Below, one piece after another: positions 17,081 to 53,104 of a DNA stretch of 62,426 nucleotides. The stretch is from NCBI GenBank assembly GCA_031423755.1, contig JANPGC010000174.1, positions 1 through 62,426 of the forward strand, read 5' to 3'. Below the pieces are notes generated by a model that saw nothing but the letters and a program-made list of their open reading frames with translations, was not told where the DNA came from and ran no database searches. Position 1 is the stretch's first letter. Each line of letters starts with the position of its first letter. The stretch comes from Phyllobacteriaceae bacterium (GTDB lineage Bacteria; Pseudomonadota; Alphaproteobacteria; Rhizobiales; Rhizobiaceae). Both the position numbers and the translations under genes were made by a program.

Positions 17081-17089
17081 TACGGGACG

Positions 17090-23015: not shown

Positions 23016-23102
23016 GGAGCGGCTCCTGAATTTGAACGGGCGGCTTCAAGGTTGATTGAGTACTCGCAAACCGCTTGAGCGACACACTGCCCACGCTACC
23101 GA

Positions 23103-23127
23103 AACGCGTTTGAAGCGACTTCGTTCC
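23103..23127 (-). promoter_or_regulatory. EcfG-type GSR promoter (GGAAC-N16-CGTT) for galU
   Basis: Plus strand reads AACG-cgtttgaagcgacttc-GTTCC, exact on the minus strand, 88 nt upstream of the galU ATG. Confidence 0.6.
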
Positions 23128-23174
23128 TGCTGTCCGTCACATTCGTGAAATGCGACAAGATCAGGAAACGGACT

Positions 23175-35112: not shown

Positions 35113-35200
35113 GGACAGCGGCTTTCCCTTCAAGTGGAAACTGATGAGGCCGCAAATCCAGTCGCGCCTATGGACGAGGGTTTCCCAGCTCAATCCGATT

Positions 35201-36915: not shown

Positions 36916-37719
36916 TCAATAGCCGGCGTCACGTTTGACTTGACCATCGCCACCTTGACGGACACTGCGCGCCAGATTGGCCATTGCGTTGCTGAACAGT
37001 GTCACGTCGTTGCCGACTGCCACGAACGTGCAGCCAAGCGACAGGTAGCGTTGCACCAGAGATTGGTCTGAGGTCAGAATCCCGGCAGCCTTGCTGCAGG
37101 CGATGATGCGCAAGATCGCGTCCTCGACCGCTGCCTGCACCTCCGGCGCGCCGGGCCTGCCGAGGTAACCCATATCGGCGGCAAGATCGGCCGGGCCGAT
37201 AAACACACCATCGACGCCCTCGGTATTGGCAATGTCCTCGAGCGCCGCCAGACCCGCGCGGCTTTCGATTTGCAGGAGGAGGCAGACCTGTTCGTTTGCC
37301 GTTTGCAGATAGTCAGGAATGGCATTGAACCTCGACGCCCGTGCCAACGCAGCGCCGACGCCGCGCATTCCGCGTGGCGGATAGAGCATCGCTCTTACCA
37401 GTTCCTCGGCTTGCGCACCGCTTTCCACCATCGGGACCAGAATGGTCTGCGCCCCGATATCGAGAACCTGCTTGATCATCCAGCTCTCGCCGATTGGAAG
37501 ACGCGCCACCGGATGCGACGGCGAGGCGGACAGGGCCTGAAGTTGAGCCAAAAGCAAAGGAATGTCATTGGGCGCATGCTCGCCGTCGAGCAGCAGCCAA
37601 TCAAACCCGGCACCACCAGAAATTTCAGCGGTGTAGGCATTGGCCAGTGCCAGCCAGAAGCCGATCTGCGGCTTTCCGGCCTTCAGCGCGGCTTTGAATG
37701 GATTGACGGGAGCGGGCAT
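36916..37719 (-). CDS. hpaI: 4-hydroxy-2-oxoheptanedioate (HKHD) aldolase
   Basis: 267 aa from ATG 37719. Near-colinear with E. coli HpaI ([16 protein letters not shown]...[15 protein letters not shown]...[17 protein letters not shown]). Confidence 0.88.
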
Positions 37720-37726: not shown

Positions 37727-38527
37727 TCAAACAAATGTGCATGACACGGAGCCGAACGGACCGAAGTCTGCTTCGACAAGACTGCCGGACGGCGCTTCGA
37801 CGGGACGGATAAACGAGCCTGACAGCACGACATCCCCGGCGTTGATCGAACCGCCGTAGACTTCAAGACGGTTTGCCAGCCACGCGATGCCCATGGCCGG
37901 ATCGTTCAGCACCCCGGCGCCAAGGCCGGTTTCCTCGACCTCGCCATTGCGCGATACGATTGCGCCCACCCAGCGCAAATCCATTGCGCGTGGGTCGTGC
38001 TTCTGGCGGCCAAGCACGATGCCGGCATTGGCGGCATTGTCGGAAATGGTGTCGAAGATGGTGCGGGCTTTCTTGGTTTCCGGGTCCGTGCGCACAATGC
38101 GCGTATCAAGAATTTCGAGAGACGGCGCGACGTAATCCGTGGCTGCCAGCACCTGCTCTGTCGTACAATCCGGACCTGACAGGTCTGATTTCATCACGAA
38201 CGCAATTTCGGCTTCGATGCGCGGCTGGATGAAGCGGTGCTTCGGGATCGCCTCGCCATCCTGGAAGAACATGTCATCAAGCAAAACGCCGGAATCCGGG
38301 ATGTCAATGTTGAGCGCATATTGCATCGCCTTCGATGTCAGTCCGATTTTCCAGCCTTTGACGATGCGGCCACGCGCAATCTTGCGGCGCACCCATGCTG
38401 CCTGAATGGCATAAGCGTCGTCCATGGTGATTGACGGATGGGCAAGGCTGAGCAGGCCAATTTGCTTGCGGCAGCGTTCAGCGCTGTCCAGCGAGGCCGC
38501 CGCAACTTCGATGTCTTGGGGCGTCAT
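37727..38527 (-). CDS. hpaH: 2-oxo-hept-4-ene-1,7-dioate hydratase
   Basis: 266 aa. Strong resemblance to E. coli HpaH ([32 protein letters not shown]; [12 protein letters not shown]; GVLN.PA.G.AWLAN). Confidence 0.88.
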
Positions 38528-39399
38528 TTGAGCACCTCGTCGACCACGGTATTGGACAATTTCCCGATGCCCTCGGCTTCCACCTCAACCACATCGCCGG
38601 GCTTCAGCCAGATCGGCGGATCAAACCGCGCACCTGCCCCTGTTGGCGTGCCGCAAACAATCGTGTCGCCAGGAGCCAGCGTCGCGAAGGTCGAGATGTA
38701 ATTGATGATTTTGCGGAAGGAAAAAATCATCCTGCTGGTGCGGTCGTCTTGCCGAAGCTCCCTGTTTACGCGGGTGGTCAAACGGATATCCGCCAGCTGG
38801 CTTTCATGGACGAAAGGCACCAGCCATGGACCGATGGCACCGGAGCGGTCAAAATTTTTGCCTTGTGTGACGTTGAATTTGGCGTGGCGTACCCAGTCGC
38901 GAAGCGTGCCTTCGTTGCACAGCGAGAGCGCGGCGATGTGCGTGAGTGCATCGTTTTCGGGGATGCGCCGTCCGCCTTTGCCGATGATGATGACAATCTC
39001 GCCTTCGTAGTCGAACTGTGGCGATTCAGGCGGGCGGATGATCGCTTCTGCGTGCCCGACAAATGAGCGCGGAAAGCGGATGAACAGCGACATGTTGTTC
39101 GGCGCTTCCTGTCCGTCCTTGTATTCCTCATTACGGTCCAGAAAGTTGACGCCGACGCATATGATTTTTTCCGGATTTGGCACGGGAATATCAAAGGCCA
39201 CCTCCTCCAGCCCAAAGTCCGTTGCGTGGCGCTGGCCTTCGTGGAACAGCTCCTTCAGCGCGTCAGCCTCGATCACATTGCGCACGGTCGGCCATTTGTT
39301 GCCAAGCCGCGCTGACAGATCGACAACCCCGCCCTCTTTGGCAAGGCCGTAGCCCGGCTTGCCATTGCGGATGAAGGAAAGGAGACGCAGCTGGGTCAT
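38524..39399 (-). CDS. FAH-family protein, probable OPET decarboxylase / HHDD isomerase (HpaG-like, single domain)
   Basis: 291 aa. FAH fold motifs (KIICVGVNF, DYEGEIVIIIGKGG, GD.I..GTP.G). ATGA overlaps on both sides within the hpa operon. Confidence 0.75.
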   Translation of the reverse strand: MTQLRLLSFIRNGKPGYGLAKEGGVVDLSARLGNKWPTVRNVIEADALKELFHEGQRHATDFGLEEVAFDIPVPNPEKIICVGVNFLDRNEEYKDGQEAPNNMSLFIRFPRSFVGHAEAIIRPPESPQFDYEGEIVIIIGKGGRRIPENDALTHIAALSLCNEGTLRDWVRHAKFNVTQGKNFDRSGAIGPWLVPFVHESQLADIRLTTRVNRELRQDDRTSRMIFSFRKIINYISTFATLAPGDTIVCGTPTGAGARFDPPIWLKPGDVVEVEAEGIGKLSNTVVDEVLK

Positions 39400-40820
39400 G
39401 GGTTGTTCCGTTGCATGCGGGAGGCGATTTTGGTGATGGCGACAAAGGCGATTTCGGCATCAGCTTCTGCCATGGCAAACGAGCCGGCCTGAAAGCGGAT
39501 GACGATGCGGCCATCGAGATTTGTCTGGGTCAGATAAATCCGGCCATCGGCGTTTATGGCGTTGACCAAATCGAGATTGTGCCCGTCAAGGTCCATCACA
39601 CCTTTTGGCTCGTGCCGGAACGAGAACAGCGACAGCATTGGCTGGCTGGCAACGCGGAAATCCGGAGTGGCGGCCAGTCGGCCGGCAAGTTTCTGCGACC
39701 AGCGAACATGGTTGCGGATCATGGACCTTAATCCGTCGAGACCGTAGGCCCGCAACAGGAACCAGATTTTCAGTGCGCGGAATCGGCGGCCAAGCGGCAC
39801 TGACCACTCCGAATAATTGATGATGCCGTCGGTGCCGTGGGTTTTCAGATATTCGGGCTTGATGGCGAGCGTGCGCACCAGATCATCCGGATCGCGGATG
39901 AAATGGGCGGCACAGTCAAACTGTGCGCCAAGCCATTTGTGGGGGTTGAAGACGATGGAATCGACCTTCTCAATACCGCACCAATAGTGCCTGAATTCCG
40001 CGCAGATCATTGCCGAGCCCGCCCAAGCCGCGTCAACATGTACGAACAACCCATGCTTTGCCGCCACCGCGCAAACAGCGGCAATGTCGTCGGTCGCGCC
40101 GACGCTGGTGCCACCGACACAGGCGATGATGCCCGCAGGCAAGTATCCGGCCGCCTTGTCAGCGGTGATCACGGCCTCCAGTGCGGCAACATCCATGCCA
40201 CGCAACTCGCCTTGGACGGCGATACGCACCAGATTGTCTGCGCCAATGCCTGACACCCAGATAGCGCGGTCAATCGATGTGTGCACCTGACCGGAGCAAT
40301 AGACGCGCAGCGTCTTTTGCCCTGCCAAACCTTGGCTGTTGCCGCGCCATGCAAGCGCCCGTTCGCGCATCACCAGCACGGCGGCCAGTGTTGCAGATGA
40401 GGCGGAATCCTGAATGACGCCGGCGAAGCCTTCCGGCAATCCGATGGCTTGGCGCAGCCAGTCTAGCACGCGGGTTTCAAGCTCCGTCGCGGCTGGCGAG
40501 GTCTGCCAGAGCATGCACTGCGCGGCCATCGCATTGACCAGATGTTCGGCAACCACGGAAGCAGGCGCGGCGTTGGCTGGAAAGTAAGCAAAGAAGCGCG
40601 GATGCTGCCAATGGGTCATGCCCGGAACGATGGTGCGCTCAAAATCCGCGAAGATCGCATCCATCGGCTCGGCAGATTCCGGCGGCGTAGCGGGCACGGC
40701 GTTGAAAATTTCACCCGGCTTCACACTGGCCCTCACAGGCCGCTCACCAAGCGAGGCGCGGTAATCGACGCCCCAGTCAGCGGCCTTGCGGGCCCAAGTG
40801 CGAAACTCGTTCTCGTTCAT
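39396..40820 (-). CDS. PLP-dependent aromatic-L-amino-acid (DOPA/tyrosine-type) decarboxylase
   Basis: 474 aa group II decarboxylase. Motifs HWQHPRFFAYFP, PLP-lysine motif NPHKW, and LPLGRRFRALKIWF. Catalytic-loop Tyr (GIINYSEW) and active-site His (QVHTSIDRA) are retained. Confidence 0.85.
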   Translation of the reverse strand: MNENEFRTWARKAADWGVDYRASLGERPVRASVKPGEIFNAVPATPPESAEPMDAIFADFERTIVPGMTHWQHPRFFAYFPANAAPASVVAEHLVNAMAAQCMLWQTSPAATELETRVLDWLRQAIGLPEGFAGVIQDSASSATLAAVLVMRERALAWRGNSQGLAGQKTLRVYCSGQVHTSIDRAIWVSGIGADNLVRIAVQGELRGMDVAALEAVITADKAAGYLPAGIIACVGGTSVGATDDIAAVCAVAAKHGLFVHVDAAWAGSAMICAEFRHYWCGIEKVDSIVFNPHKWLGAQFDCAAHFIRDPDDLVRTLAIKPEYLKTHGTDGIINYSEWSVPLGRRFRALKIWFLLRAYGLDGLRSMIRNHVRWSQKLAGRLAATPDFRVASQPMLSLFSFRHEPKGVMDLDGHNLDLVNAINADGRIYLTQTNLDGRIVIRFQAGSFAMAEADAEIAFVAITKIASRMQRNNP

Positions 40821-40831: not shown

Positions 40832-41812
40832 TTATGGCGCAACAATCGGCTGTGCTTTCAGTATCGCGTCTGCAGTCTCGACGCCATCAAACAGGCTGCC
40901 TTCTTCGAACCAGCTCTTGGGCGCAGGGGCGCCCCAGAGCGTCTGGCGTTGCGGGTCTTTGAGGTCCCATTTGATCGGATCGAGGTCCGGATCGACGGTC
41001 TGGTAATCTGAACAGTAGATTTCGATGCGATGGCCATCCGGGTCGCGGATGTAGAGGAAAAAGGCGTTGGAAATGCCATGCCGGCCCGGACCGCGCTCAA
41101 TGTTCTTGAGGTAACCGGTGGTGGACATCAGGTCGAGTAGATCGATTATATTGAGCGGTGTCGGCACCCAGAACGCGACGTGATGCAGCCGCGGGCCGTG
41201 GCCGTTGGTGAAGGCCATGTCATGCACGCCGCCCTTGCGGTGCATCCATGCGGCCCACAGTTTCTTGCTCTCGTCATCTTCGGTGTATTCGGTGACGCGG
41301 AAGCCCATGGAATTGTAGAACTCCACGGATGCATCGACGCTTTGCGTAAAGCAATTGAAGTGGTCAATGCGCAGCGGCTTGACGCCCCGATAGAGCTTGT
41401 ACTGCTGGTGGATGGGCGAAAGCTTGTCGATTGACGCATAGAATTCGAGTGGAATGCCCTGATGGTCTGACGTAAGGAGTGTGCGCCCTTGGTATGGGCG
41501 CTTTACCCATTCTGCCTTGCGCCCGCGTGCCTCAAACCAGCCCTTGGCGGCATCGAGGTCATCCTCGGAATAGACCTTGAAACCAAGCACCCGCACCAGC
41601 GGCTTGTCGCCCTTGGTCAGAATGATGCAATGATGGCCTCGCTCCTCCATGGCCCGAAGATAGATGCGTTTGTCGTCTTCGCCCGTGACTTGAAGGCCAA
41701 GTGTGTCCGCCCAAAAGGCCCTGCTCGCGGCGAGGTCTGTCACGACCAGCTCAACGTGGCTGAGGCGCACGACGTTGAAATCGGGATAGAGATTTGATGT
41801 TGGAACCGGCAT
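40832..41812 (-). CDS. hpaD: 3,4-dihydroxyphenylacetate (homoprotocatechuate) 2,3-dioxygenase, type I extradiol (VOC fold)
   Basis: 326 aa. Two VOC modules (RLSHVELVVTDL..., RIDHFNCF..., HHVAF, HGISNAFFLY.RDPDGHRIE), like the Brevibacterium/Arthrobacter HPCD type. Sits between hpaE and the decarboxylase. Confidence 0.85.
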   Translation of the reverse strand: MPVPTSNLYPDFNVVRLSHVELVVTDLAASRAFWADTLGLQVTGEDDKRIYLRAMEERGHHCIILTKGDKPLVRVLGFKVYSEDDLDAAKGWFEARGRKAEWVKRPYQGRTLLTSDHQGIPLEFYASIDKLSPIHQQYKLYRGVKPLRIDHFNCFTQSVDASVEFYNSMGFRVTEYTEDDESKKLWAAWMHRKGGVHDMAFTNGHGPRLHHVAFWVPTPLNIIDLLDLMSTTGYLKNIERGPGRHGISNAFFLYIRDPDGHRIEIYCSDYQTVDPDLDPIKWDLKDPQRQTLWGAPAPKSWFEEGSLFDGVETADAILKAQPIVAP

Positions 41813-41815: not shown

Positions 41816-43333
41816 TCAGCCCCCCAGCTTCTGGATCGCGTGCGGCGCAGTGGCGAATGCAATGTTCTTGGTTTCCATGTAAAAATCGAACGAATGATCG
41901 CCGCCATCGCGGCCAATGCCGGAGTTTTTCACGCCGCCGAACGGCGTCGGCAAATGGCGGACGTTCTCGGAATTCACCCAGATCATTCCGGCCTCCAGCC
42001 CATCTGAGAAACGGAAGGCGCGGGTGACATCGCTGGTCCAGAGGTAGCCGGTCAGGCCGTATTGAACATCATTGGCCAGCGCCAGCGCCTCGGCTTCGTC
42101 CTTGAACGGAATGGCTGTCAGCACAGGTCCGAAAATTTCCTCTTGCGCGATGCGCATCTGGTTGTTGGCACCGGTGAAGAGCGTCGGCGAGACATAGCAG
42201 CCGCCTCCGGGGCCATCGAACTTGTTGCCACCAGCCGCGACAATCGCGCCCTCGCTTTTGCCGATTTCTATGTATTCCAAGACTTTCTTTTCGTGCACCG
42301 GATGGATCAACGGGCCGACAACTGTTGCAGGATCAAGCGGATGGCCAACCTTGATGCGTTTGGCCTTCTCCGCGACCATGGCGGTGAATTTCTCGTAGAT
42401 CGATGCCTCTACCAAAAGGCGAGACGAAGAGGTGCAGCGTTCGCCGTTGAGCGAGTAGATCATGAAGACGGCGGCATCGGCGGCGCGTTCGAGATCGGCG
42501 TCGGCAAACACGACGCACGGGTTTTTGCCACCAAGTTCGAAGTGGACGCGCTTCAATGTTGCCGCCCCCTGGCGCATGATCATCGAACCGGTACGGCTTT
42601 CACCGACGAAGCCGATGGCCTTGATATCCGGATGTTCGGTGAGCGCCTTGCCTGCCTCTTCGCCAAGCCCGTTGATCAGGTTCCAGACGCCCTTCGGCAG
42701 CCCGGCTTCCTCGGCGATCTCAACCAAGAGCCGCGCCGTTAATGGCGAGAATTCGGCAGGCTTGTGCACAATGGTACAGCCTGCCGCCAGTGCCGGAGCG
42801 ATCTTCCAAGTGGACAGCATGAACGGCGTGTTCCATGGCGTTATCACACCAACCGGGCCAATCGGCACCCGCGTGGTCATGTTGACCTGGCCCTCCGTGC
42901 GCAGTGTTTCACCATCGCGGGCTTGCGGCGCAAGATCGGCGAAATAGCGGAAATTTTCCGCCCCGCGCAGTGCGGCTTTGGCCATGAATTTCAGCGATTG
43001 GCCGGTGTCCATGCACTCGACGAACGCAAGCTCTTCGGCGCGGGCAGCGATGGCATCGGCGATCTGGTGCAAAAGCCTTTTGCGCGCTGTGCCCGGCATT
43101 GCCGCCCAATCCTTGAAGGCAGCCTTGGCAGCCTTGGCCGCGCGGTCGATGTCTTCCGCTTTGCCTCGCGCGACACGGGCCATGGGTTTCAGATCAATGG
43201 GCGAAATGATCTCGAACGTGGACCCGTCGGCGGCGGGCACAGCTTCGCCGCCGATCTGATTCAAGACGCCATGGTCGCGGAACCGCTTGAGATACAGGTT
43301 CGCTTTTGCAATGTTGGCTTCAAGTTGCGACAT
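41816..43333 (-). CDS. hpaE: 5-carboxymethyl-2-hydroxymuconate semialdehyde dehydrogenase
   Basis: 505-aa NAD aldehyde dehydrogenase (ELGGKNP, catalytic Cys in GERCTSSSR). hpa operon context. Confidence 0.85.
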   Translation of the reverse strand: MSQLEANIAKANLYLKRFRDHGVLNQIGGEAVPAADGSTFEIISPIDLKPMARVARGKAEDIDRAAKAAKAAFKDWAAMPGTARKRLLHQIADAIAARAEELAFVECMDTGQSLKFMAKAALRGAENFRYFADLAPQARDGETLRTEGQVNMTTRVPIGPVGVITPWNTPFMLSTWKIAPALAAGCTIVHKPAEFSPLTARLLVEIAEEAGLPKGVWNLINGLGEEAGKALTEHPDIKAIGFVGESRTGSMIMRQGAATLKRVHFELGGKNPCVVFADADLERAADAAVFMIYSLNGERCTSSSRLLVEASIYEKFTAMVAEKAKRIKVGHPLDPATVVGPLIHPVHEKKVLEYIEIGKSEGAIVAAGGNKFDGPGGGCYVSPTLFTGANNQMRIAQEEIFGPVLTAIPFKDEAEALALANDVQYGLTGYLWTSDVTRAFRFSDGLEAGMIWVNSENVRHLPTPFGGVKNSGIGRDGGDHSFDFYMETKNIAFATAPHAIQKLGG

Positions 43334-43344: not shown

Positions 43345-43731
43345 TCAGGATCCGCGCAGCCGCGCGTGGATGGCATTTTTCTTCCAGCTCAATGCCGGAT
43401 CGTTTTCGACAAGGTCAACTGAAAGAGCAAAGTGAGGCGTCGCAAACAGCGGCGCGAGCATTTGCGAAAGTGTCGAATGCAATGTCTCTCCGACGCGCTT
43501 CTTTTCCTCAAGCGTACGCCCTGCCCCGATGCGAACAAGCACGGCGAGAAACGCATTCTCCCGCGCTTCGTCTGCAATCGCATAATGATCGCAACGAAGC
43601 GCCCGCACACGCACGGCGCCAAGCTCGAACAGGCCGGTGTCCATCATTGTGGCCTTGGCCGCCTTGCACAGCTCGGCGATATCAACCGTGGCCTCCAGAT
43701 TGGCTGAATATTCCATCGTCAGATGCGGCAA
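43345..43731 (-). CDS. hpaF: 5-carboxymethyl-2-hydroxymuconate isomerase (tautomerase superfamily)
   Basis: 128 aa. TTG start giving (M)PHLTMEYSANL, colinear with E. coli HpcD MPHFIVECSDNI. GGGGAGAG RBS. Confidence 0.85.
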   Translation of the reverse strand: MPHLTMEYSANLEATVDIAELCKAAKATMMDTGLFELGAVRVRALRCDHYAIADEARENAFLAVLVRIGAGRTLEEKKRVGETLHSTLSQMLAPLFATPHFALSVDLVENDPALSWKKNAIHARLRGS

Positions 43732-43756
43732 CGCTCTCTCCCCAACCGTTATTTGA

Positions 43757-43768
43757 TTAACATGTTAA
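43757..43768. promoter_or_regulatory. 12-bp perfect palindrome TTAACATGTTAA, candidate HpaR (MarR) operator
   Basis: Lies in the 105-bp divergent hpaF/hpaR region, 26 nt upstream of the hpaF start. Confidence 0.4.
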
Positions 43769-43836
43769 ATATAAGCGGTTCTGTCAAGCCGATTTTGCCG
43801 TTTGCGATGAGAATCGGAATCTGGAATAAGCGGCCC

Positions 43837-44319
43837 ATGGTTACAGGATCAGATCCCCTCGTTGGCGACAATTCCAACAACGCGCCTGTTGATGGCGTGC
43901 AGCCACGACTGACGCGCCGCTCACTGCCAATTGCTCTGCTTCGTGCGCGTGAATCCGTGATGGCCAAGTTCCGCCCGATGCTTGCCAGACATGACATGAA
44001 CGAACAGCAATGGCGCGTCATCCGCATTCTTGGCGAGGCCGGAGAGTTGGACGCAACGGAACTGGCGGACCGGGCGCTGGTGCTGGCCCCGAGCCTGACC
44101 CGCATGATCAAATCGCTGAAAACCCGCAAGTTGATCACGCTGCGCAAAGACAAGGAGGACGGCCGCCGGACGCTGATTTCAATCACGCCAGCAGCACGGA
44201 AGCTGATCGCAGAAATTTCTCCGGAAAGCATGCAGATCTACCGCGATCTCGAAAAGTCCTTCGGCAAGGACGAAATGGAACGGCTGCTTGATCTGCTCGA
44301 GGCTGTATCGAAGCTTTAG
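43837..44319 (+). CDS. hpaR: Homoprotocatechuate degradation operon regulator, MarR family
   Basis: 160 aa from ATG 43837 (alternative ATG at 43807). Colinear with E. coli HpaR (IALLRARESVMAKFRPMLARHDMNEQQWRVIRIL). Confidence 0.8.
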   Translation: MVTGSDPLVGDNSNNAPVDGVQPRLTRRSLPIALLRARESVMAKFRPMLARHDMNEQQWRVIRILGEAGELDATELADRALVLAPSLTRMIKSLKTRKLITLRKDKEDGRRTLISITPAARKLIAEISPESMQIYRDLEKSFGKDEMERLLDLLEAVSKL

Positions 44320-45539: not shown

Positions 45540-45543
45540 CAAA

Positions 45544-45864
45544 TCAGCCTTGAGGAACGATGAGTACGAGGCCATCCAGCGCCGGAGAGACGATGACCTG
45601 GCAGCTCAAGCGGCTGAACTCCGTCTTCGGGGCTTCCGTGATTTCAAGCATCGCATCCTCAATGTCGCCTGGCTTTCCTGCGCGGTCGGTCCAGTCTTCA
45701 TCGACATAGACATGACACGTTGCGCAAGAAAGGCACCCGCCGCATTCGCCGACAACGCCGGCGACATTGTTGGCCACTGCGGCGTTCATCAGGTTCATTC
45801 CGTCAGCAACTTCGGCGCTGATTATCGAACCGTTCGCCAGGTTCCAGGTGATCTTGGCCATCAT
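45544..45864 (-). CDS. [2Fe-2S] ferredoxin, adrenodoxin/putidaredoxin type
   Basis: 106 aa. Cys ligand pattern ECGGCLSCATCH...LSCQ. Confidence 0.85.
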   Translation of the reverse strand: MMAKITWNLANGSIISAEVADGMNLMNAAVANNVAGVVGECGGCLSCATCHVYVDEDWTDRAGKPGDIEDAMLEITEAPKTEFSRLSCQVIVSPALDGLVLIVPQG

Positions 45865-45880
45865 GTTTGTTCCGAATCTG

Positions 45881-47155
45881 TCAGATGTAATGGATGTAGA
45901 AGTCGCGCAGCGCGTCGCCTTCCAGCTGGGATGTCTTTTCGATTTCGTCGCGCTTGATGAAGACATGATTTTCACAAAGCAGCCGACCGACGGCCTCCAT
46001 CAGGGCGCCATCTGCCTCCAGCGCATCGAGTGCGCCGCCCAGCGTTTCAGTAACGCCATCAACGGCTTCGTGTTCGGTCAGGCAATTGGCTGTTTCCATC
46101 GGTGGCAGCGGATATTTGTTGACGAAACCCAGCCGCGCCGCCTGCAGCGTCGTCGCCACCAGCGTATAGGGATTGGACGCGCCATCGCCCATCCGGTGCT
46201 CGATGCGCGCCTTGGGACCGCGTTCGGCGGAGATCCGCGTGGTGACGCCGCGATGGTCACCGCCCCAGTTGCGCCAGTAGCCGGACAGCGATGATGGTTT
46301 GAGGCGCTGGTAGGAGTTGACCGTCGGCGCAACCAGCGCTGCCATCGCCTGATGATGGTGCATGAGCCCGGCAATGCAGCCCTGCGCCACCGGGCTCAGA
46401 CTATCCGGTTCGCCAACCGCATTGTTGCCGTGCTCGTCCTTGAATGAGAAGTTCACGTGCAGCCCGCTGCCACCTTTGGACAGGATGGGTTTGGGCATGA
46501 ATGTCAGCACAATTCCGAATTCCAACGCCGTTTCCCGTGCCAATTGGCGGAACAGGAAAATGTCATCCACGGCCTTCAGGGCACGGTCATAGGTCAGCGT
46601 AAACTCGTATTGCGGCGTGTCAAACTCGGAGGTCATGGAGTCGATGGCAAAGCCGAGCGCCGTGGCCCGCTCCCATATCTCGTCCATGAACCCGCGCGGA
46701 TCAGCAAATGGGCCGGTGGCGTAGACATAGCCTTTGGGCGTCTCATATGGCACGAGCTTGCCGTCATCGTCGTGCTGGAAGGCGAAGCACTCCAGCTCCA
46801 GCCCGATCATCGGGTCAAATCCAATCGTATTCCAATCGCTGATCGCCTTCTTCAGCGCCTGACGCCCGCACGCGCCGAACGGCTGGCCTTCTTCATAGAG
46901 ATCACCGACGACGATCCTGGTGTTGTCTTCCCAGCCGTCGCGCACATCCGCGCCAAGGTAGCGCACTTCCAAGTCTGGCAGGCCTTCCAGAACCTTGGAG
47001 CCCGGCGACGGGATGAGATCCCTGTCGTAGGTCACTCCAAAGGTGCTCTGGCAAACGCGCGTGCTGTTCGTGCCAATTTTTGAGGCGGGCAGATACTTTC
47101 CGCGCGCCAGATTCAAATGGTCACAGAACAAGACCCGCAATCGTTCGTTGGACAT
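45881..47155 (-). CDS. Glutamine-synthetase-family gamma-glutamyl-amine ligase (PuuA/IpuC-like)
   Basis: 424 aa from ATG 47155 (GGGAGGGG RBS; the ORF-track start is GTG). GS catalytic-domain motifs (GLELECF, KP...GSGLHVNFS, NSYQRL, RIEHR). Confidence 0.8.
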   Translation of the reverse strand: MSNERLRVLFCDHLNLARGKYLPASKIGTNSTRVCQSTFGVTYDRDLIPSPGSKVLEGLPDLEVRYLGADVRDGWEDNTRIVVGDLYEEGQPFGACGRQALKKAISDWNTIGFDPMIGLELECFAFQHDDDGKLVPYETPKGYVYATGPFADPRGFMDEIWERATALGFAIDSMTSEFDTPQYEFTLTYDRALKAVDDIFLFRQLARETALEFGIVLTFMPKPILSKGGSGLHVNFSFKDEHGNNAVGEPDSLSPVAQGCIAGLMHHHQAMAALVAPTVNSYQRLKPSSLSGYWRNWGGDHRGVTTRISAERGPKARIEHRMGDGASNPYTLVATTLQAARLGFVNKYPLPPMETANCLTEHEAVDGVTETLGGALDALEADGALMEAVGRLLCENHVFIKRDEIEKTSQLEGDALRDFYIHYI

Positions 47156-47177
47156 CGCTACCCCTCCCACAGTCTAT

Positions 47178-48440
47178 TCAATTCAGCTCAATCTTGACCG
47201 GCATGCTCTTGATGCCGCCGACAAAATTGGAGCGCAGATAATGCTGTTCGCCGGTCTGCTTGATCGATTTGACCCGCTTGGCGAATTCCTGAAACAACAG
47301 CCGGATTTCAAGTCGTGCCAGCCACATGCCGAGGCACACATGCGCCCCGCCCTGCCCGAAAGCCACGTGCCGGTTTGGCGAGCGGCGGAAATCCACCTTG
47401 AATGGATTGTCGAACACCGCTTCATCTCGGTTCCCGGACACAAACCACAAAAGCACCTTGTCGCCCTCGCGCAGTGTTTTGCCATGCAGCTCGTGATCGC
47501 GCGTCACCGTGCGGCGGAAATACATGGCAGGCGACGCCCAGCGGATCACTTCGTCCGGCATGGTGTCCCAGATGGTTTCATCATTGCCCTGAAGGTCTTC
47601 CAGCAATCCCGGCTGGTTGGCGAGCGCCTGCAATCCGGCTGCGATCGAATAGCGCGTCGTGTCGTTGCCCGCCGCCACCAGTAGGCAGAAGAAATTGCGG
47701 AACTCTTCCTCGGAAATCACATTGCCTAGGGAATCCGGCTGCATGATCAGATTGAGCACGCCTGTCGTGTCGCCCTTGCGCCGCTTGTCTGCCATCAGCT
47801 TCTTTGCGTAGTCGAAAAGGTCCGCGCCAGCCGGCGAGCGGAACGGCATCAGCCGGTAGGCATCCGTGTCAGCCTTGTCGAGCACATGGTCGGTGAAGTC
47901 GGAATCCGTGTTTGCGATGAGCGCGTCGCCCTTTTCGACCAGCCAGTTCAAATCCTCGTCCGGCGTGCCCATGATCTGCCCAAGCATCCGCATCGGCAAT
48001 TGCCGCGCCAGACTTTTGACCGCATCGAATTCGCCAAGCGGTAGAACGTCGTCGAGTATCTCGTCGCATAGCTGGCGGATTTGCGTTTCAAACAGCGCGA
48101 CGACCGGCTTGGAAAATGCCTTGGCAACCAGAATGCGCATGCGGGTATGGTCTGGCGGATCGGTTTCCTGAAAGGTCCGCCGCGCCAGATATTCCTCGTA
48201 GGTCTGGTCTTCCATGCGAATGCCGTGCGCCGAGGAATAGAGCGCATTGTTGCGGTTGCACTCGTGGATGTCTTCGTTGCGCGTGATCGACCAGAAGCCC
48301 TGTCCCGCCGGATAGTCGCACCAGGCAACCGGTTCCTCGCTTCTCAGCCGTGCAAACGTGTTGTGCGGCGCACCGGACACGAACGCATCGTGGCTCGAGA
48401 GATCGGCGTGGCCGTCGTCATTGGGAACCCAGACCGTCAC
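47178..48440 (-). CDS. Cytochrome P450 monooxygenase
   Basis: Heme-binding loop FGQGGAHVCLG, ExxR motif and I-helix AGNDTT. GTG 48440 is preferred (GGAGAA RBS) over the ORF-track TTG at 48455. Confidence 0.85.
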   Translation of the reverse strand: MTVWVPNDDGHADLSSHDAFVSGAPHNTFARLRSEEPVAWCDYPAGQGFWSITRNEDIHECNRNNALYSSAHGIRMEDQTYEEYLARRTFQETDPPDHTRMRILVAKAFSKPVVALFETQIRQLCDEILDDVLPLGEFDAVKSLARQLPMRMLGQIMGTPDEDLNWLVEKGDALIANTDSDFTDHVLDKADTDAYRLMPFRSPAGADLFDYAKKLMADKRRKGDTTGVLNLIMQPDSLGNVISEEEFRNFFCLLVAAGNDTTRYSIAAGLQALANQPGLLEDLQGNDETIWDTMPDEVIRWASPAMYFRRTVTRDHELHGKTLREGDKVLLWFVSGNRDEAVFDNPFKVDFRRSPNRHVAFGQGGAHVCLGMWLARLEIRLLFQEFAKRVKSIKQTGEQHYLRSNFVGGIKSMPVKIELN

Positions 48441-48552
48441 GAACTTTCTCCTCAAAAACTTCGTTGCAAAATGTAGAACACATGTTAAATATATTTACAA
48501 GCCTCATTTGCACACATATAAAATATTCCTGCATGCACAATTGGAGAAAGTC

Positions 48553-49269
48553 ATGAAACGACGCATTGGAATTCTGCTGACCTGCGTCGACGATTCGGAA
48601 TTCGCCAAGCGCTTCCCGGACGACGGCGAAAAGTTCCGCCGTCTGTTGCAGCCGCTGCGGCCGGAATGGAAATTTGTGACGGTGCCGGTCAAGGATGGTG
48701 TGTTTCCTGAACAAGCCAGTGATTTTGACGGCTATATTATCACCGGCAGTCCGGTTTCGGTGAATGCAAATTCCAAATGGATCAAGCAGCTGTTTGGCTT
48801 CATCCGCGAGCTGGACGCCAAGAAAGTTCCGACGTTCGGCGCCTGCTTCGGACATCAGGCTATTGCCATGGCGCTGGGTGGCACAGTCGAAAAATCAGAT
48901 AAGGGTTGGGGACTGGGCACGGCCAAAACCGAGTTCGACAACTTCGCCCCTTGGATGGAGCCGCAACAGAAGAAGATGACGCTGTTCGCGGCGCATGAGG
49001 ACCAAGTGACGACGCTGCCGAAAGACGCCGTGGTTTTGGGTGGCAGCGAATTCTGTCCCTATGGGTCCTACCGCATCGGTTCGCACATTTTTACCACTGA
49101 ATATCACCCTGAGATGACGCAGGAGTTTGTATCGGCGCTTTTGGATGAGCTTGAATCCGGGCTTGACGTTGAGACGATTGCCGCAAGTCGCCGATCCCTG
49201 AGCGCGCCGGCGGAAGGTCCGGCATTTGCACAGTGGATCGTTAATTTTCTCGATAAATCAGCTTGTTAG
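48553..49269 (+). CDS. Class I glutamine amidotransferase-like hydrolase (candidate gamma-glutamyl-amide hydrolase, PuuD/IpuF role)
   Basis: 238 aa from ATG 48553 (GGAGAAAG RBS). Nucleophile GACFGHQ and His-Glu pair YHPE. Confidence 0.75.
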   Translation: MKRRIGILLTCVDDSEFAKRFPDDGEKFRRLLQPLRPEWKFVTVPVKDGVFPEQASDFDGYIITGSPVSVNANSKWIKQLFGFIRELDAKKVPTFGACFGHQAIAMALGGTVEKSDKGWGLGTAKTEFDNFAPWMEPQQKKMTLFAAHEDQVTTLPKDAVVLGGSEFCPYGSYRIGSHIFTTEYHPEMTQEFVSALLDELESGLDVETIAASRRSLSAPAEGPAFAQWIVNFLDKSAC

Positions 49270-49929
49270 ATGACGAGACTTTGACAGCATGGCGATGAGG
49301 TCCATGGCGGTCACACTGTCAAAGGTCACATGCTTGACCATGGCTTCCTCTGCACCCGTTACGTCCCGGTCCACAATCAGCGCGGCGATTTTGCTGTGCT
49401 CGATTGCTGACTGCGGAATGCTGCCCTTGTAGGCATAGCGGGCGCGATAGTAGGCGAGGAGCTTGCGGCCATTGGTGCGGATCATCTCCATCAAAAACGG
49501 ATTGTGCGCGGCAAGGCCGACAGTTTTGTGGAAGGCCAGATTGTGCTGATAGTAGGCATTGGGCATGGTGTCAGCGAGCGTTGCCACATGGTGATCGCAA
49601 GCAGCGCAGGCGCGTTCCAGCGCGGCAGCGTCATCGACGGAAAGGCGGCGCGCAGCCAATGCCGCGGCGTGGCCCTCGAGCTTGGCATGGACTTCGAGAA
49701 TGGCGAGGAATTCCTCCAGCGTCGGCTGAAACACTTCCGCCCCGCCACGGGCCTTGCGCCGCAAAATACCAACCGCATCAAGTTGCAGCAGCGCTTCGCG
49801 CACAGGCGTTCTGGAGAGGCCAAATTCGCTGACCAGCGCCTTCTCCTCCAGCACATCGCCGGGCGACAGCGTGCCGTCTTCGATGCGTTTGACGATGTGC
49901 TCAACGATCATGTCAGTTTGATTGCTCAT
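49258..49929 (-). CDS. GntR-family (FadR/FCD subfamily) transcriptional regulator
   Basis: 223 aa. wHTH (LVSEFGLSRTPVREALLQLDAVGIL) plus an all-helical FCD-like C-terminal domain. Confidence 0.85.
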   Translation of the reverse strand: MSNQTDMIVEHIVKRIEDGTLSPGDVLEEKALVSEFGLSRTPVREALLQLDAVGILRRKARGGAEVFQPTLEEFLAILEVHAKLEGHAAALAARRLSVDDAAALERACAACDHHVATLADTMPNAYYQHNLAFHKTVGLAAHNPFLMEMIRTNGRKLLAYYRARYAYKGSIPQSAIEHSKIAALIVDRDVTGAEEAMVKHVTFDSVTAMDLIAMLSKSRHLTS

Positions 49930-49979: not shown

Positions 49980-51464
49980 TCAGAGCTGTATCCACGCCGT
50001 TTTCAGGTCGGAAAACTTGTCCAGCGCATGCAGCGACTTGTCATGGCCATTGCCGGATTGACCGACGCCGCCGAGCGGCACCGTGTTGTCCGACCCGCCG
50101 TAGGTGTTCACATGCACCACCCCTGCGCGGATGTTGCGCACCATGCGGTGTGCCTTGGAAAGGTTTGACGTCCAAACCGCTGAAGCCAATCCATAGACTG
50201 TAGAATTGGCAATCCGCACCGCATCCGCCTCGTCCTTGAACTTCATCACGCCCAGCACCGGTCCGAACACTTCCTCTTGAGCCAGATGCATCTTCGGCTC
50301 AATGCCGGAAAAGACGGTCGGCGACATGTAGAAACCACCGGTCTCCTCAAGAATGCGCTTGCCGCCGGTCTGCAAAAATCCGACTTCCACTTCGGCGCGA
50401 TGGACGAATTCCAGATCTTTTTCCAACTGGTCCAGACTGGTCACCGCACCGGCTTCGGTGCTGAGATCAAGCGGGTCGCCAACTTTGATCTTCGATGCGA
50501 TGGAAGAAACCCTGGCCACAAACTCGTCATGGATGCTCTCTTCCACCAACAGCCGCGATCCTGCCACACACACCTGCCCGGAATTGCGGAAGATGCCATA
50601 GGCGGAAATCTTCGCGGCTTGGTCCAAGTCGGGCGCGTCGGCGAAGACAACGTTTGGAGACTTGCCGCCAAGTTCGAGATAGCAGCGCTTCATGTTTGAG
50701 CGGGCGGAATATTCCATCAGCTTGCGGCCGACAAAGCCGGACCCCGTGAACGCCATCACGTCGACATCCATGTGGAGGCCGAGCGCCTCACCGCAGACCG
50801 AGCCTTTGCCCGTGACGACATTCAATACTCCGTCCGGAAGCCCTGCTTCTGAACACAGTTCTGTCAAACGCAACAATGACAGCGAAGCGGCTTCGGCAGG
50901 TTTCAGCACCACAGAATTTCCAGCCGCAAGCGCTGGTGCAATTTTCCAGGAGCCGATCATCATCGGAAAATTCCACGGCACAATTGCCGCGACGACGCCA
51001 ACAGGTTCGCGGTGGATCAGGCCGAGTATATTGGGCGCAGTCGGGGCGATTTCTCCATAAACCTTGTCGATGGCTTCAGCATAATAGCGGAACGTGCCCG
51101 CTGCACTGCCCGGCTCTGCCTTCAGCGCCATGGAAATTTCCGTACCATTGTCGCGTACGCCAAGCACCGCGAGTTCAACCGCATGCTTCTCGATCAGGTC
51201 GGCGATGCGGTGCATCACCCTTTTGCGTTCGGCAGGCGCCGCGCGCGACCAGACGCCGCTGTCGAATGCCTTGCGTGCGGCAGCAACTGCACGATCCGCG
51301 TCCGCCGCTGATGCGCGGGCGATACTGGTGAACACCTTGCCATCAATAGGCGAAATGACATCCAGTCTGCCTCCGTCTTCAGCCTTGGACCAAGCGCCGT
51401 CGATGAACAGGTCGCGCCCGGATACGGGCAGCACGCGCAGGCGATCGATTTCGGATTGACTCAT
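49980..51464 (-). CDS. NAD-dependent aldehyde dehydrogenase, PuuC-like (gamma-glutamyl-aminoaldehyde type)
   Basis: 494 aa from ATG 51464 (GAGGA RBS). Motifs ELGGKSP, catalytic Cys GQVCVAGSR, and the RYYAEAIDKVYGE segment resembling E. coli PuuC. Confidence 0.8.
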   Translation of the reverse strand: MSQSEIDRLRVLPVSGRDLFIDGAWSKAEDGGRLDVISPIDGKVFTSIARASAADADRAVAAARKAFDSGVWSRAAPAERKRVMHRIADLIEKHAVELAVLGVRDNGTEISMALKAEPGSAAGTFRYYAEAIDKVYGEIAPTAPNILGLIHREPVGVVAAIVPWNFPMMIGSWKIAPALAAGNSVVLKPAEAASLSLLRLTELCSEAGLPDGVLNVVTGKGSVCGEALGLHMDVDVMAFTGSGFVGRKLMEYSARSNMKRCYLELGGKSPNVVFADAPDLDQAAKISAYGIFRNSGQVCVAGSRLLVEESIHDEFVARVSSIASKIKVGDPLDLSTEAGAVTSLDQLEKDLEFVHRAEVEVGFLQTGGKRILEETGGFYMSPTVFSGIEPKMHLAQEEVFGPVLGVMKFKDEADAVRIANSTVYGLASAVWTSNLSKAHRMVRNIRAGVVHVNTYGGSDNTVPLGGVGQSGNGHDKSLHALDKFSDLKTAWIQL

Positions 51465-51525
51465 TTTGTCCTCGTTTGAAATGGCAAGGGCGGCAGTCTC
51501 CCGCCGCCCTCGATAGCTCAATGTA

Positions 51526-52965
51526 TCAAGTGTTGCGGCCGAGTTCGCTGAACTTGACCGGGTTGCGTCTTTCTAGGCTGCCTGCTGACAGGTAGCCGAT
51601 GATTGCCGCGACAAGCACCAGCGACGGCAGCGCCACGCCGAGCGTGCCAGACGCGCCGGTGAGATCGCCAAACTTCGCGAAGATGTAGACAAACAGCAAT
51701 GCGAGGATGGCACCGGTGATCATCGGCAATATCTTGGTGGCAAGCGCCGTTTCGCCCAAGTCGCTCTTGCCGAAGAACGACACCACGGCAAAGGACGTGA
51801 TGCCCATCAGGCCGAGAATACCCAGCGTGCCGAGCTGCGTCAGCCAAGTGAACAGCTGCAGCACCGGATCCATGCCCATGATGGCAAAGAAGCCGACGAC
51901 AACAACCGCAAGCACGGTCTGGATGATGGAGCCGACATGCGGGCTTTGGTAAGTGTCATGAGTCACGCCGACAGATGCCGGAAGAATGCCCTCGCGACCA
52001 GCCACATATTTGTAGCGCGCCACACCATTGTGGAAGGCCAGAACGCCGGCAAAGAGACTCGATACGAACAGGAAGCCCATGATCGTTGGAACCGGTCCGC
52101 CGACGTAACGACCGGCAAGTTCAAACAGGAACGTCGTCGGATCAGCCAGCGACTGCAATGTCGGAACCAGCTTGTCCACACCCGCGCCGTTGGCCATCAG
52201 CCAAGCGGTGACCATGTAGAACACGCCGATCAGAATTACCGAGAGATAAGTCGCCTTCGGCACCGTTGTGTGGGGATCGCGCGCTTCTTCGGAATAGATG
52301 GTTGTCGCTTCAAAGCCGATAAAGGCGGCGAAGCAGAACAGTATGCCGATGGCGGGTGAGCCGCTCATGATCTGGCTGATGCTGAATGGTGCCATTGAAA
52401 GGCCGCTGTCGCCGCCTTTGACGAAAATCGCCACGTCGACAATCAAAACGATGACATATTCAAGCAATACCAGCGCCATCAATATCTTGGCCGAAAGGTC
52501 CACCTGCCGATAACCCAGAACGGCGCAGAACGCGATGCCGACGAAGCTCCACACCCACCAGGGCAGATCGATTCCGATGGAGGCAAATGTCCCTGCCGAC
52601 GCTGCGCCCAAAAGGCCGAGAATGCCGATCTGCATCGCGTTGTAGCTGAGGATGGCAATCAGCGCGGCGGCACCGCCGATTTTGCCGCCAAGGCCGCGCG
52701 CTGCAAATGCGTAGAAGCCGCCCGCGCTTGATATATGCCTTGCCATCGCAACGTAGCCGACTGCGAAGGCGATCAGGATGATTGTTGTGAGCAGAAATGA
52801 TCCGGCAATGCCGGCACCGTTTCCGAGCAGCATGCTGATTGGCACACCGCCCGCCACTGCGGTCAGAGGCGCTGCCGCCGATATGACCAGAAATGTGACA
52901 GCGCCGACCCCGAGGCTGTTTTTGCGCAGCTGGTTTGCCCCCGCCGCATTTGTTGAATTTGCCAT
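51526..52965 (-). CDS. APC-superfamily amino acid/amine permease
   Basis: 479 aa from ATG 52965 (GGAGGG RBS; the ORF-track start is TTG). About 12 TM helices with an APC-type N-terminus. Confidence 0.85.
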   Translation of the reverse strand: MANSTNAAGANQLRKNSLGVGAVTFLVISAAAPLTAVAGGVPISMLLGNGAGIAGSFLLTTIILIAFAVGYVAMARHISSAGGFYAFAARGLGGKIGGAAALIAILSYNAMQIGILGLLGAASAGTFASIGIDLPWWVWSFVGIAFCAVLGYRQVDLSAKILMALVLLEYVIVLIVDVAIFVKGGDSGLSMAPFSISQIMSGSPAIGILFCFAAFIGFEATTIYSEEARDPHTTVPKATYLSVILIGVFYMVTAWLMANGAGVDKLVPTLQSLADPTTFLFELAGRYVGGPVPTIMGFLFVSSLFAGVLAFHNGVARYKYVAGREGILPASVGVTHDTYQSPHVGSIIQTVLAVVVVGFFAIMGMDPVLQLFTWLTQLGTLGILGLMGITSFAVVSFFGKSDLGETALATKILPMITGAILALLFVYIFAKFGDLTGASGTLGVALPSLVLVAAIIGYLSAGSLERRNPVKFSELGRNT

Positions 52966-53104
52966 TGTACCCTCCAATTTGCAATTCGCCCCAACAGATC
53001 CCCTGTTTCATTATTTGAACCATCGGTGCAAATAGAGACTTGCAAAATTCCAAATGTGATGTCAAGTTATTTCACATGTTAAGCGACTAGGGAGTTCGAC
53101 CTTG

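Follow-up and report, generated by a model that had tools for sequence, protein, structure and literature searches.

Introduction

The lower genes for ring cleavage of homoprotocatechuate (HPC) are known from the hpa/hpc clusters of Escherichia coli W/C and from the HPC catabolon of Pseudomonas putida U, a strain that degrades dopamine and tyramine through HPC. P. putida KT2440, in turn, reportedly has a eukaryotic-type DOPA decarboxylase (DDC) that is specific for L-DOPA (Koyanagi et al. 2012, cited in PMC12607914). Its gene is not known to be embedded in an hpa operon. Here, we analyze a 62,426-nucleotide contig of a Phyllobacteriaceae bacterium (GenBank assembly GCA_031423755.1, contig JANPGC010000174.1, referred to throughout as the window), in which a gene for an aromatic amino acid decarboxylase (AADC) of the DDC type, at positions 39396-40820 of the minus strand, lies inside an HPC meta-cleavage operon.

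The locus shares its lower genes (hpaD, E, F, G-like, H, I, and R) with both the P. putida U catabolon and the E. coli clusters, and with the former also the logic of proceeding from amine to aldehyde to arylacetate to HPC. It differs from E. coli in that the ring-cleaving dioxygenase there is of the LigB type, whereas the HpaD of the window is of the VOC type (TIGR02295). It differs from the HPC catabolon in two further respects: the route encoded here would begin one step earlier, at the amino acid, by way of the operon-encoded AADC, and the window has no copper/flavin amine oxidase of the TynA type, which leaves a class-III transaminase as the likely deaminating enzyme. We argue below that the decarboxylase is an amine-forming AADC that serves as the catabolic feeder enzyme of the HPC operon, a reading based on sequence and gene context to which we assign a probability of roughly 0.6.

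Results and Discussion

The Decarboxylase as a Member of the HPC Operon

The decarboxylase open reading frame (ORF) starts with ATG and encodes 474 aa. It stands in the gene order hpaF-E-D-DDC-FAH-H-I on the minus strand, with hpaR divergent (Table 1), and every junction among these seven genes is either an overlap or a gap of no more than 11 nt. On the downstream side, the decarboxylase stop codon TGA (39398-39396) shares an ATGA with the start codon ATG (39399-39397) of the FAH-family gene, visible as TCAT at 39396-39399 of the plus strand. On the upstream side, an 11-nt gap (GGACATTTAAA) separates the end of the hpaD ORF (40832) from the decarboxylase ATG (40820), and a Shine-Dalgarno-like AAGGA lies across the hpaD stop, ahead of the decarboxylase. 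A consensus scan for promoter- and terminator-like sites inside the operon gave no excess over shuffled sequence.

A previous reading of this DNA, made from its letters alone (the sequence-only reading), had described a 474-aa group-II pyridoxal phosphate (PLP) decarboxylase between hpaD and the FAH gene, with the same overlap and gap, and had taken it to be an operon member rather than a neighbor. The ORF and the PF00282 match agree with the identification, and both junctions can be read directly from the sequence. The operon membership is borne out not only by the tight packing but also by the recurrence of the order hpaD-DDC-FAH in about 29 loci from several alphaproteobacterial families, because of which, on the sequence evidence, the decarboxylase is a member of the hpa operon and not a chance neighbor.

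By profile score and position, its neighbors are true hpa genes. HpaD, HpaE, HpaH, HpaI, and HpaR all five exceed the curated NCBIfam equivalog cutoffs (Table 1). HpaF reaches 89 bits against a cutoff of 215 with the NCBIfam isomerase model, despite its CHMI Pfam match, and the FAH protein scores 152 bits with the HpaG C-terminal model, under the cutoff of 276; the positions of both are kept in all syntenic loci. The hpaI gene most likely starts at ATG 37718, 8 nt past the hpaH stop, and the true start of hpaR is probably about 40 codons inside its ORF (TIGR02337 aligned from residue 67, and the orthologues are 159-160 aa long).

Recurrence of the Arrangement in Other Genomes

One genome per GTDB species was scanned, which yielded 588 relatives of the decarboxylase; the best 80 of these (67-77% identity) were examined with 10-kb flanks and mapped using the window proteins. 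The arrangement hpaF-E-D-DDC-FAH-H(-I) with hpaR was found in 22 of these 80 loci, from Sinorhizobium kostiense, Ensifer, Shinella, Aquamicrobium, Ahrensia, Roseibium, Leisingera, Phaeobacter, Phycobacter, Sedimentitalea, and metagenome-assembled genomes of Hyphomicrobiales. The same operon is carried on megaplasmids of S. fredii NGR234, Rhizobium leguminosarum bv. trifolii 9B, and E. adhaerens Casida A, with further copies on a marine metagenome contig (L133) and on two contigs with an 84% identical decarboxylase. In total, about 29 loci have a decarboxylase inserted in this way, and they come from Rhizobiaceae, Roseobacteraceae, Ahrensia, Roseibium, and uncultured Hyphomicrobiales. Locus L166 (assembly GCA_031373225.1; 84% decarboxylase identity) reproduces the window gene for gene from the aldehyde dehydrogenase (ALDH) through GntR, GATase, P450, the glutamine synthetase-like (GS-like) gene, ferredoxin (Fdx), ferredoxin reductase (FdR), and hpaR to hpaF-E-D-DDC-FAH-H. 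A neighbor-joining tree of the decarboxylases roughly tracks taxonomy, and three of its four major clades contain hpa-embedded copies. Judged by this synteny, the DDC-in-hpa arrangement is either old or readily transferred, and is far beyond chance.

We note several variations on this theme. Seven loci from Roseobacter, Ahrensia, and some Hyphomicrobiales have an extra LigB-type extradiol dioxygenase beside the VOC-type hpaD (L064, L065, L071, L074, L076, and L080, at approximately 8000-8950, and L165, at 5659-6510), and so hold two nonhomologous ring-cleavage enzymes per cluster. In five others (L023, L040, L103, L107, and L117), an HpaI-like aldolase, 57-67% identical to the hpaI product of the window, directly follows the decarboxylase, with no other hpa genes. 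Finally, in R. leguminosarum (pRL9b4, L081), a gabD succinate-semialdehyde dehydrogenase gene (16440-17894) lies between the decarboxylase and FAH genes; the decarboxylase-FAH junction therefore tolerates insertions, and this particular insertion fits succinic semialdehyde as the end product of the pathway.

Enzyme Family and Catalytic Residues

The PF00282 (Pyridoxal_deC) match covers decarboxylase residues 35-402, corresponding to profile positions 1-373 of 375 (E 7e-93). The best PDB relative is 7xin, a 476-aa bacterial "DOPA decarboxylase" (E 1.7e-115), followed by plant tyrosine, tryptophan, and DOPA decarboxylases, pig, human, and fly DDC, histidine decarboxylase (HDC), and aromatic aldehyde synthases (AAS), such that the top 16 PDB matches (1.7e-115 to 2e-72) are all AADC, tyrosine decarboxylase (TyDC), tryptophan decarboxylase (TDC), HDC, or AAS. 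The diaminobutyrate (DABA), glutamate, and cysteine-sulfinate decarboxylases of the PDB follow at 1e-46 or worse, and the rhizobactin DABA-decarboxylase equivalog reaches 164 bits against a cutoff of 900. A preference for non-aromatic substrates, which the sequence-only reading had named as the result that would speak against it, thus finds no support in homology, and DABA or glutamate decarboxylase identity was rejected on the same ground. With 7xin, the window enzyme shares the fold, the subfamily, the catalytic Lys, His, and Tyr (PSYLQ in 7xin, PEYLK in the window), and the PLGRRF loop; the two differ in the substrate pocket (YFPS in 7xin vs YFPA in the window, and LGL vs QCM).

Residues were mapped by alignment to pig DDC (1js3) and Catharanthus TDC (CrTDC, 6eew). 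K295 in NPHKW corresponds to the PLP-lysine K303 of pig DDC, H180 in QVHTS to pig H192, and D263 to pig D271, the Asp that contacts the PLP pyridine; together with G344, these three residues are invariant in 85 of 85 orthologues. The sequence-only reading was right that the PLP-lysine (NPHKW) and the active-site histidine (QVHTSIDRA) are kept, but it placed the catalytic-loop tyrosine in GIINYSEW, which is the wrong residue: Y336 of this motif aligns with pig Y346, with F362 of CrTDC, and with Leu in 7xin, and the catalytic tyrosine is instead Y324 in KPEYLK (pig Tyr332, CrTDC Tyr348). The conclusion it had drawn, that the enzyme should release an amine rather than act as an aldehyde synthase, survives this correction, because Y324 is indeed Tyr.

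Replacement of the catalytic Tyr by Phe reportedly makes DDC-type enzymes decarboxylating oxidative deaminases (Bertoldi 2002; Torrens-Spence 2013). Phenylacetaldehyde synthase (PAAS), 4-hydroxyphenylacetaldehyde synthase (4-HPAAS), and 3,4-dihydroxyphenylacetaldehyde (DHPAA) synthase are homologous to the window enzyme (6eeq 9e-79, 6jrl 2e-72), and an enzyme of this kind would give the pathway aldehyde in one step. The Tyr332 to Phe or His192 to Asn replacements of the plant and insect aromatic aldehyde synthases are not found in the window enzyme, and on the strength of Tyr324 and His180 such an identity was rejected for it. As far as its residues tell, the decarboxylase is of the AADC/DDC type with decarboxylase-type, not aldehyde-synthase-type, catalytic residues. 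Of the earlier expectation of a dopamine- or tyramine-type amine, the aromatic family stands; the sequence does not single out L-DOPA, tyrosine, or another amino acid as the specific substrate. A Gly354/Ser372 marker that separates phenolic from indolic substrates in plant aromatic amino acid decarboxylases was also considered and is uninformative, as the residue is Gly in pig DDC, AtTyDC, CrTDC, 7xin, and all 85 orthologues alike.

The position of the catalytic tyrosine (codon 39849-39851 in the window) is polymorphic among orthologues, with Phe (PEFLK for PEYLK) in 21 of the 85 aligned sequences. These Phe forms are mostly stand-alone Mesorhizobium copies, and include two of the 26 hpa-embedded copies in the alignment (L041 and L070, the latter from Aquamicrobium). 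They are dispersed over the tree, which points to many independent switches between Tyr and Phe. By analogy with plant AAS and the Y332F mutant of DDC, the Phe forms are predicted to be natural bacterial aromatic aldehyde synthases, and the Tyr and Phe variants could serve as a naturally occurring set in which to study how such enzymes switch between decarboxylase and aldehyde synthase.

An Accessory Module Associated with the Decarboxylase

A module comprising the ALDH, an APC permease, an IclR regulator, a Tm-1-like protein, a HAD hydrolase, a transaminase, a phospho-lyase homologue, and a kinase (Table 1) adjoins the DDC-bearing operon in 12 loci. On the Shinella plasmid pbSHIWSC3 (L082), the module lies on both sides of the decarboxylase with no hpa gene within 15 kb, and in two further loci (L068 and L073) it likewise flanks the decarboxylase without hpa genes. 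The ALDH is co-located with the decarboxylase in L081-L084, and the APC permease beside the ALDH is kept in rhizobial plasmids. The link that the sequence-only reading had drawn from the decarboxylase to the ALDH and the aminotransferases is strengthened by the repeated co-location of the ALDH, the APC permease, and the genes at 55.8-59.4 kb with the decarboxylase, which persists even where hpa genes are absent, as in L082.

The same reading had proposed aminotransferases at 55.8-58.4 kb as a source of deamination. The first of these is indeed an omega-transaminase, with the broad-range omega-transaminases 5lh9 and 6s54 as its nearest PDB relatives (approximately 1e-120), and among the candidates it would most simply account for the conversion of amine to aldehyde. 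By its closest homologues, the second is a phospho-lyase homologue rather than an aminotransferase: its nearest PDB relatives are 5g4i (a bacterial phospho-lyase) and 6tor (the human ethanolamine-phosphate phospho-lyase), after which the next match falls to 1e-51. Its gene overlaps by 4 nt that of a kinase, the nearest PDB relative of which is 6ef6, the aminopropanol kinase of M. smegmatis (PMC7314540). Taken together, the two genes look like an amino-alcohol kinase/phospho-lyase pair, placed here in the context of aromatic amine catabolism and not, as for the described pairs, of ethanolamine, aminopropanol, or hydroxylysine metabolism. Acting on an octopamine- or noradrenaline-type substrate, the two enzymes would, we infer, form the same arylacetaldehyde; a full-text literature search found no paper linking phospho-lyases to octopamine.

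Proposed Route and the Points Weighing Against It

Taking these observations into account, we propose the following route. An aromatic amino acid would be imported, plausibly via the APC permease, with L-DOPA as the best candidate and tyrosine or m-tyrosine as possible ones. The decarboxylase would convert it to the amine (dopamine in the case of L-DOPA), and the amine would yield the arylacetaldehyde, most simply through the omega-transaminase. The PuuC/StyD-like ALDH would then oxidize the aldehyde to HPC, or to 4-hydroxyphenylacetate (4-HPA) where HpaBC is available, and HpaD, E, F, FAH, H, and I would split HPC to pyruvate and succinic semialdehyde. In terms of regulation, HPC would lift HpaR repression and so lead to more decarboxylase, in a feed-forward loop.

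L-DOPA is the most economical substrate for such a route, since it needs no ring hydroxylase and since tyrosine already has a separate route beside the module, where the homogentisate 1,2-dioxygenase gene hmgA (700 bits) and then a fumarylacetoacetase-like gene occupy positions 59901-62317. We nevertheless regard L-DOPA specifically as a tentative assignment, somewhat more doubtful than the feeder role as such.

A number of observations, however, count against the decarboxylase being a feeder of this kind. Identity to 7xin is just 41% (BLASTP). The position of pig Thr82, the residue that binds the catechol 4'-OH, is Ala in the window enzyme, as it is in CrTDC, and pig Ile101-Gly-Phe103, contributed by the partner subunit, is replaced by Gln-Cys-Met; because these pocket residues differ from those of characterized DDCs, L-DOPA specificity is not to be assumed. 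Most Mesorhizobium orthologues (72-76% identical) are solitary among unrelated genes, with no alternative conserved partner in their flanks, where only ATP-grasp, Alpha-E, transglutaminase, DeoR, and glpD-like genes occur, and from these stand-alone copies it follows that the decarboxylase can serve without an adjacent hpa operon. The Roseobacter loci have the operon without the transaminase/ALDH module inside 10 kb. Finally, if a repressor that responds to the product controls the feeder enzyme, some basal expression is needed.

Ring Hydroxylation and the Tyrosine Alternative

The absence of hpaBC from the window, on which the sequence-only reading had laid weight, was reproduced by tblastn with Shinella HpaB and HpaC (E<1e-10), which found no homologue of either in the 62 kb. 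Nor was HpaB found in the stretch examined of the closest relative, L166. As a hallmark of this kind of operon, however, the absence does not hold up: nine relatives (L002, L003, L027, L051, L066, L072, L081, L083, and L084), S. fredii NGR234 and R. leguminosarum among them, have HpaB, HpaC, and an AraC regulator right next to the DDC-bearing operon, and the missing hpaBC is therefore not a defining trait of the operon type. In the stretches compared, lack of the hydroxylase is a trait of the immediate lineage of the window instead.

Two other candidates for the missing hydroxylase were rejected. The P450 cluster described below is not supported as a substitute for HpaBC, as HpaB and the P450 cluster occur together in L002, L051, and L072, and the P450 is of an aliphatic-hydroxylase type. 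The flavin-dependent (FAD) monooxygenase encoded at 6305-8059 was considered as a stand-in for the 4-HPA hydroxylase; its gene is part of a different cluster, which also holds pcaF and an intradiol dioxygenase gene, and it shows no homology to HpaB.

The HpaB-bearing relatives do lend themselves to another interpretation, in which the enzyme is mainly a tyrosine decarboxylase, and tyramine passes through 4-HPA to HPC by means of an HpaBC encoded elsewhere in the genome. A pocket without the Thr that binds the catechol hydroxyl in pig DDC would suit this as well. We consider it unlikely, given that neither the window nor the L166 stretch shows HpaB, that the window already has the homogentisate route for tyrosine, and that animal DDC-type enzymes are generally poor on p-tyrosine.

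The P450/Gamma-Glutamyl Cluster

Between hpaR and the ALDH, in the same placement as in L166, lies the P450/gamma-glutamyl cluster (44322-49269). Its GS-like synthetase and GATase-type hydrolase, taken with the nearby PuuC-like ALDH, APC permease, and class-III transaminase, resemble the gene set of the Puu (putrescine) pathway, with the difference that a P450 takes the place of the oxidase. With its P450, ferredoxin, and reductase, the cluster also parallels the Ipu (isopropylamine) pathway. All components of a Puu/Ipu-type gene set are present in the window by domain, every equivalog score being below cutoff, and, unlike in the Puu and Ipu systems, the cluster is joined to an aromatic ring-cleavage operon.

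A metagenome scan was seeded with the P450 alone, and neighbors were counted over 47 loci of at least 10 kb. Of these, 45 had the GS-like gene, 34 the GATase, 21 the transaminase, 18 the ALDH, and 15 UPF0261; the phospho-lyase (7/47) and DDC (4/47) followed, with hpa genes in a handful. By these counts, the P450 cluster goes functionally with the transaminase/ALDH module; its tie to DDC and hpa is looser. We note also that, in metagenomes, the P450/GS-like/GATase trio usually neighbors the transaminase, IclR, ALDH, and UPF0261 genes of the same module. Hydroxylation of an aromatic ring by this P450 is disfavored, since its nearest solved relatives (CYP125, CYP124, CYP268, and CYP153) are aliphatic hydroxylases, and, on sequence, small alkylamines would be an equally good guess for the substrates of the cluster. 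Hence, the earlier proposal that the P450/gamma-glutamyl cluster is a source of deamination fares unevenly: its link to the transaminase and ALDH is seen in the metagenomes, and a role in the deamination of aromatic amines is at most tentative for a P450 of the CYP124/125/153 aliphatic-hydroxylase group. The P450 cluster and the kinase/phospho-lyase pair probably act in parallel as points of entry for related amines, such as beta-hydroxylated or alkyl amines.

A bolder reading treats the whole supercluster of approximately 23 kb as an undescribed system for multi-entry catecholamine catabolism, combined with repeated Tyr/Phe switching that would have produced the first natural bacterial aromatic aldehyde synthases. 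The AADC would admit L-DOPA, noradrenaline or octopamine would be imported or made by gamma-glutamyl-dependent P450 hydroxylation, and the beta-hydroxylated amines would be deaminated without an oxidase, by the amino-alcohol kinase and phospho-lyase, to the arylacetaldehyde. If true, genes could thereby be assigned to activities of the "octopamine hydro-lyase/synephrine dehydratase" type, which to our knowledge are still orphan. We consider this reading distinctly unlikely.

It is more improbable still that the amine formed by the decarboxylase is deaminated through the gamma-glutamyl/P450 genes or the kinase/phospho-lyase pair and not by transamination. In one version, the gamma-glutamylated amine would be hydroxylated by the P450 next to the nitrogen, to give glutamine and the aldehyde; in the other, hydroxylation at the beta-carbon and hydrolysis would give a noradrenaline- or octopamine-type amino alcohol, which would be phosphorylated and then converted by the phospho-lyase to arylacetaldehyde, ammonia, and phosphate. 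The completeness, by domain, of the Puu/Ipu-like set (the GS-like gene, the P450 and its Fdx and FdR, the GATase, the PuuC-like ALDH, and the APC permease), its placement, the metagenome counts given above, and the strong homologies of the kinase and phospho-lyase are all in line with such a scheme. Rhizobiaceae, however, retain the DDC and hpa genes together with the accessory module and its kinase/lyase pair, and lack any P450 cluster; the relatives of the P450 hydroxylate aliphatic termini, which leaves small alkylamines as equally plausible substrates; a transaminase, which is always present, offers a simpler route; and the full-text literature search gave no precedent.

Least probable of all is that the amine serves a non-catabolic purpose (signaling, an auxin/tryptamine route, allelochemical detoxification, or pH homeostasis) and that the placement of the decarboxylase among the hpa genes is a historical accident, as the stand-alone Mesorhizobium orthologues amid housekeeping-type genes and the P. 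putida DDC, which is said to have been interpreted as an allelochemical response, might suggest, given that the slot between hpaD and FAH is kept across distant families, that the decarboxylase co-travels with the ALDH, transaminase, and permease, that profile searches of the window proteins showed no acid-resistance (TyrP-type) amino acid/amine antiporter adjacent to it, and that the model for the Enterococcus/Lactobacillus-type tyrosine decarboxylase of about 620 aa (TIGR03811) reaches 33 bits against a cutoff of 905.

Table 1. Genes of the HPC Operon, the P450/Gamma-Glutamyl Cluster, and the Accessory Module in the Window
Gene or product	Position	Strand	Basis
hpaI, 4-hydroxy-2-oxoheptanedioate aldolase	36916..37718	-	TIGR02311 390 bits, cutoff 369
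hpaH, 2-oxo-hept-4-ene-1,7-dioate hydratase	37727..38527	-	TIGR02312 411 bits, cutoff 351
FAH-family protein, presumed HpaG-type 5-oxopent-3-ene-1,2,5-tricarboxylate (OPET) decarboxylase	38524..39399	-	PF01557 1.7e-62
AADC/DOPA-type decarboxylase, 474 aa	39396..40820	-	PF00282; 7xin best in PDB; K295 (PLP), H180, Y324, D263
hpaD, 3,4-dihydroxyphenylacetate 2,3-dioxygenase (VOC type)	40832..41812	-	TIGR02295 416 bits, cutoff 321
hpaE, 5-carboxymethyl-2-hydroxymuconate semialdehyde dehydrogenase	41816..43333	-	TIGR02299 770 bits, cutoff 638
hpaF, 5-carboxymethyl-2-hydroxymuconate isomerase, first operon gene	43345..43731	-	Pfam CHMI 7e-46
hpaR, MarR-type regulator, divergent from operon	43723..44319	+	TIGR02337 158 bits, cutoff 121
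Ferredoxin-NAD(+) reductase for the P450	44322..45575	-	Pyr_redox_2 and Reductase_C
2Fe-2S ferredoxin, real gene about 105 aa within the ORF	45544..45975	-	Weak fdx_isc match; 105-aa Fer2 orthologue in same place in L166
GS-like gamma-glutamyl-amine synthetase (PuuA/IpuC-like)	45881..47170	-	Gln-synt_C 8.6e-68; gamma-glutamylputrescine synthetase model 175 bits, below cutoff
Cytochrome P450, CYP124/125/153-like	47178..48455	-	PDB: CYP125 ancestor 6e-93, CYP268A2, CYP124
Class-I GATase-like, PuuD/IpuF-like gamma-glutamyl amide hydrolase candidate	48358..49269	+	GATase 3e-15; NF004212 176 bits, below cutoff
GntR/FCD regulator	49258..49929	-	Domain profile search
Aldehyde dehydrogenase, PuuC/StyD-like, candidate arylacetaldehyde dehydrogenase	49980..51521	-	PuuC model 573 bits, below cutoff 850
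APC-family amino acid/amine permease	51526..52977	-	AA_permease_2
IclR-family regulator	53102..53878	+	Domain profile search
UPF0261/Tm-1-like ATP-binding protein	53882..55132	+	NF002676 650 bits, cutoff 556
HAD-IA hydrolase	55093..55803	+	Profile searches
Class-III omega-transaminase, candidate amine:pyruvate transaminase	55778..57148	+	NF005683 737 bits, cutoff 575
Phospho-lyase homologue, class-III fold	57145..58434	+	PDB 5g4i 4e-106, 6tor 1e-103
APH-fold small-molecule kinase, aminopropanol-kinase-like	58431..59444	+	PDB 6ef6 1e-40

Other Loci in the Window

A third aromatic catabolic cluster, besides the HPC operon and the homogentisate genes, lies at 2550-15514. It holds an intradiol dioxygenase of the catechol/hydroxyquinol type (5402-6292), an FAD aromatic-ring monooxygenase (6305-8059), the 3-oxoadipyl-CoA thiolase gene pcaF, a Liv/Urt-type ABC transporter, an Fe-ADH-family protein, and a LysR regulator. 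With three ring-cleavage systems, the window is a catabolic hot spot.

Between this cluster and the HPC operon, a general stress response locus (17935-24215) encodes a multi-PAS HWE histidine kinase (17935-20601), a PhyR-family anti-anti-sigma response regulator (20704-21552), and a PhyK-like HWE kinase (23175-24215), followed on the minus strand by a 2866-aa ORF with GH94 domains (26593-35193), a cyclic beta-1,2-glucan synthase of the NdvB/ChvB type that is typical of Hyphomicrobiales and agrees with the taxonomic assignment of the window.

Conclusions

The components of this locus are each known, namely bacterial eukaryotic-type DDC, HPC catabolons, hpa operons, the Puu/Ipu pathways, and phospho-lyase/kinase pairs. 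A full-text literature search found no account of the supercluster as a whole, nor one in which an AADC gene is a conserved part of the interior of an hpa operon. If our reading is true, it would give a role to genes that are widely annotated simply as "pyridoxal-dependent decarboxylase", and would provide candidate genes for oxidase-independent deamination of amines. The arrangement is present in tractable strains, including S. fredii NGR234, R. leguminosarum, Ensifer adhaerens, and Phaeobacter, and is thus directly testable.

L-DOPA, dopamine, tyramine, and octopamine act as allelochemicals of plants and as signals of animals or algae; rhizobia meet them in the rhizosphere, and roseobacters on algae. 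Coupling of an AADC to ring cleavage would, if true, explain the consumption of such compounds, and not mere production or tolerance of amines. The arrangement, as it recurs in the genomes of many soil and marine alphaproteobacteria, probably lets its hosts grow on L-DOPA-type compounds.

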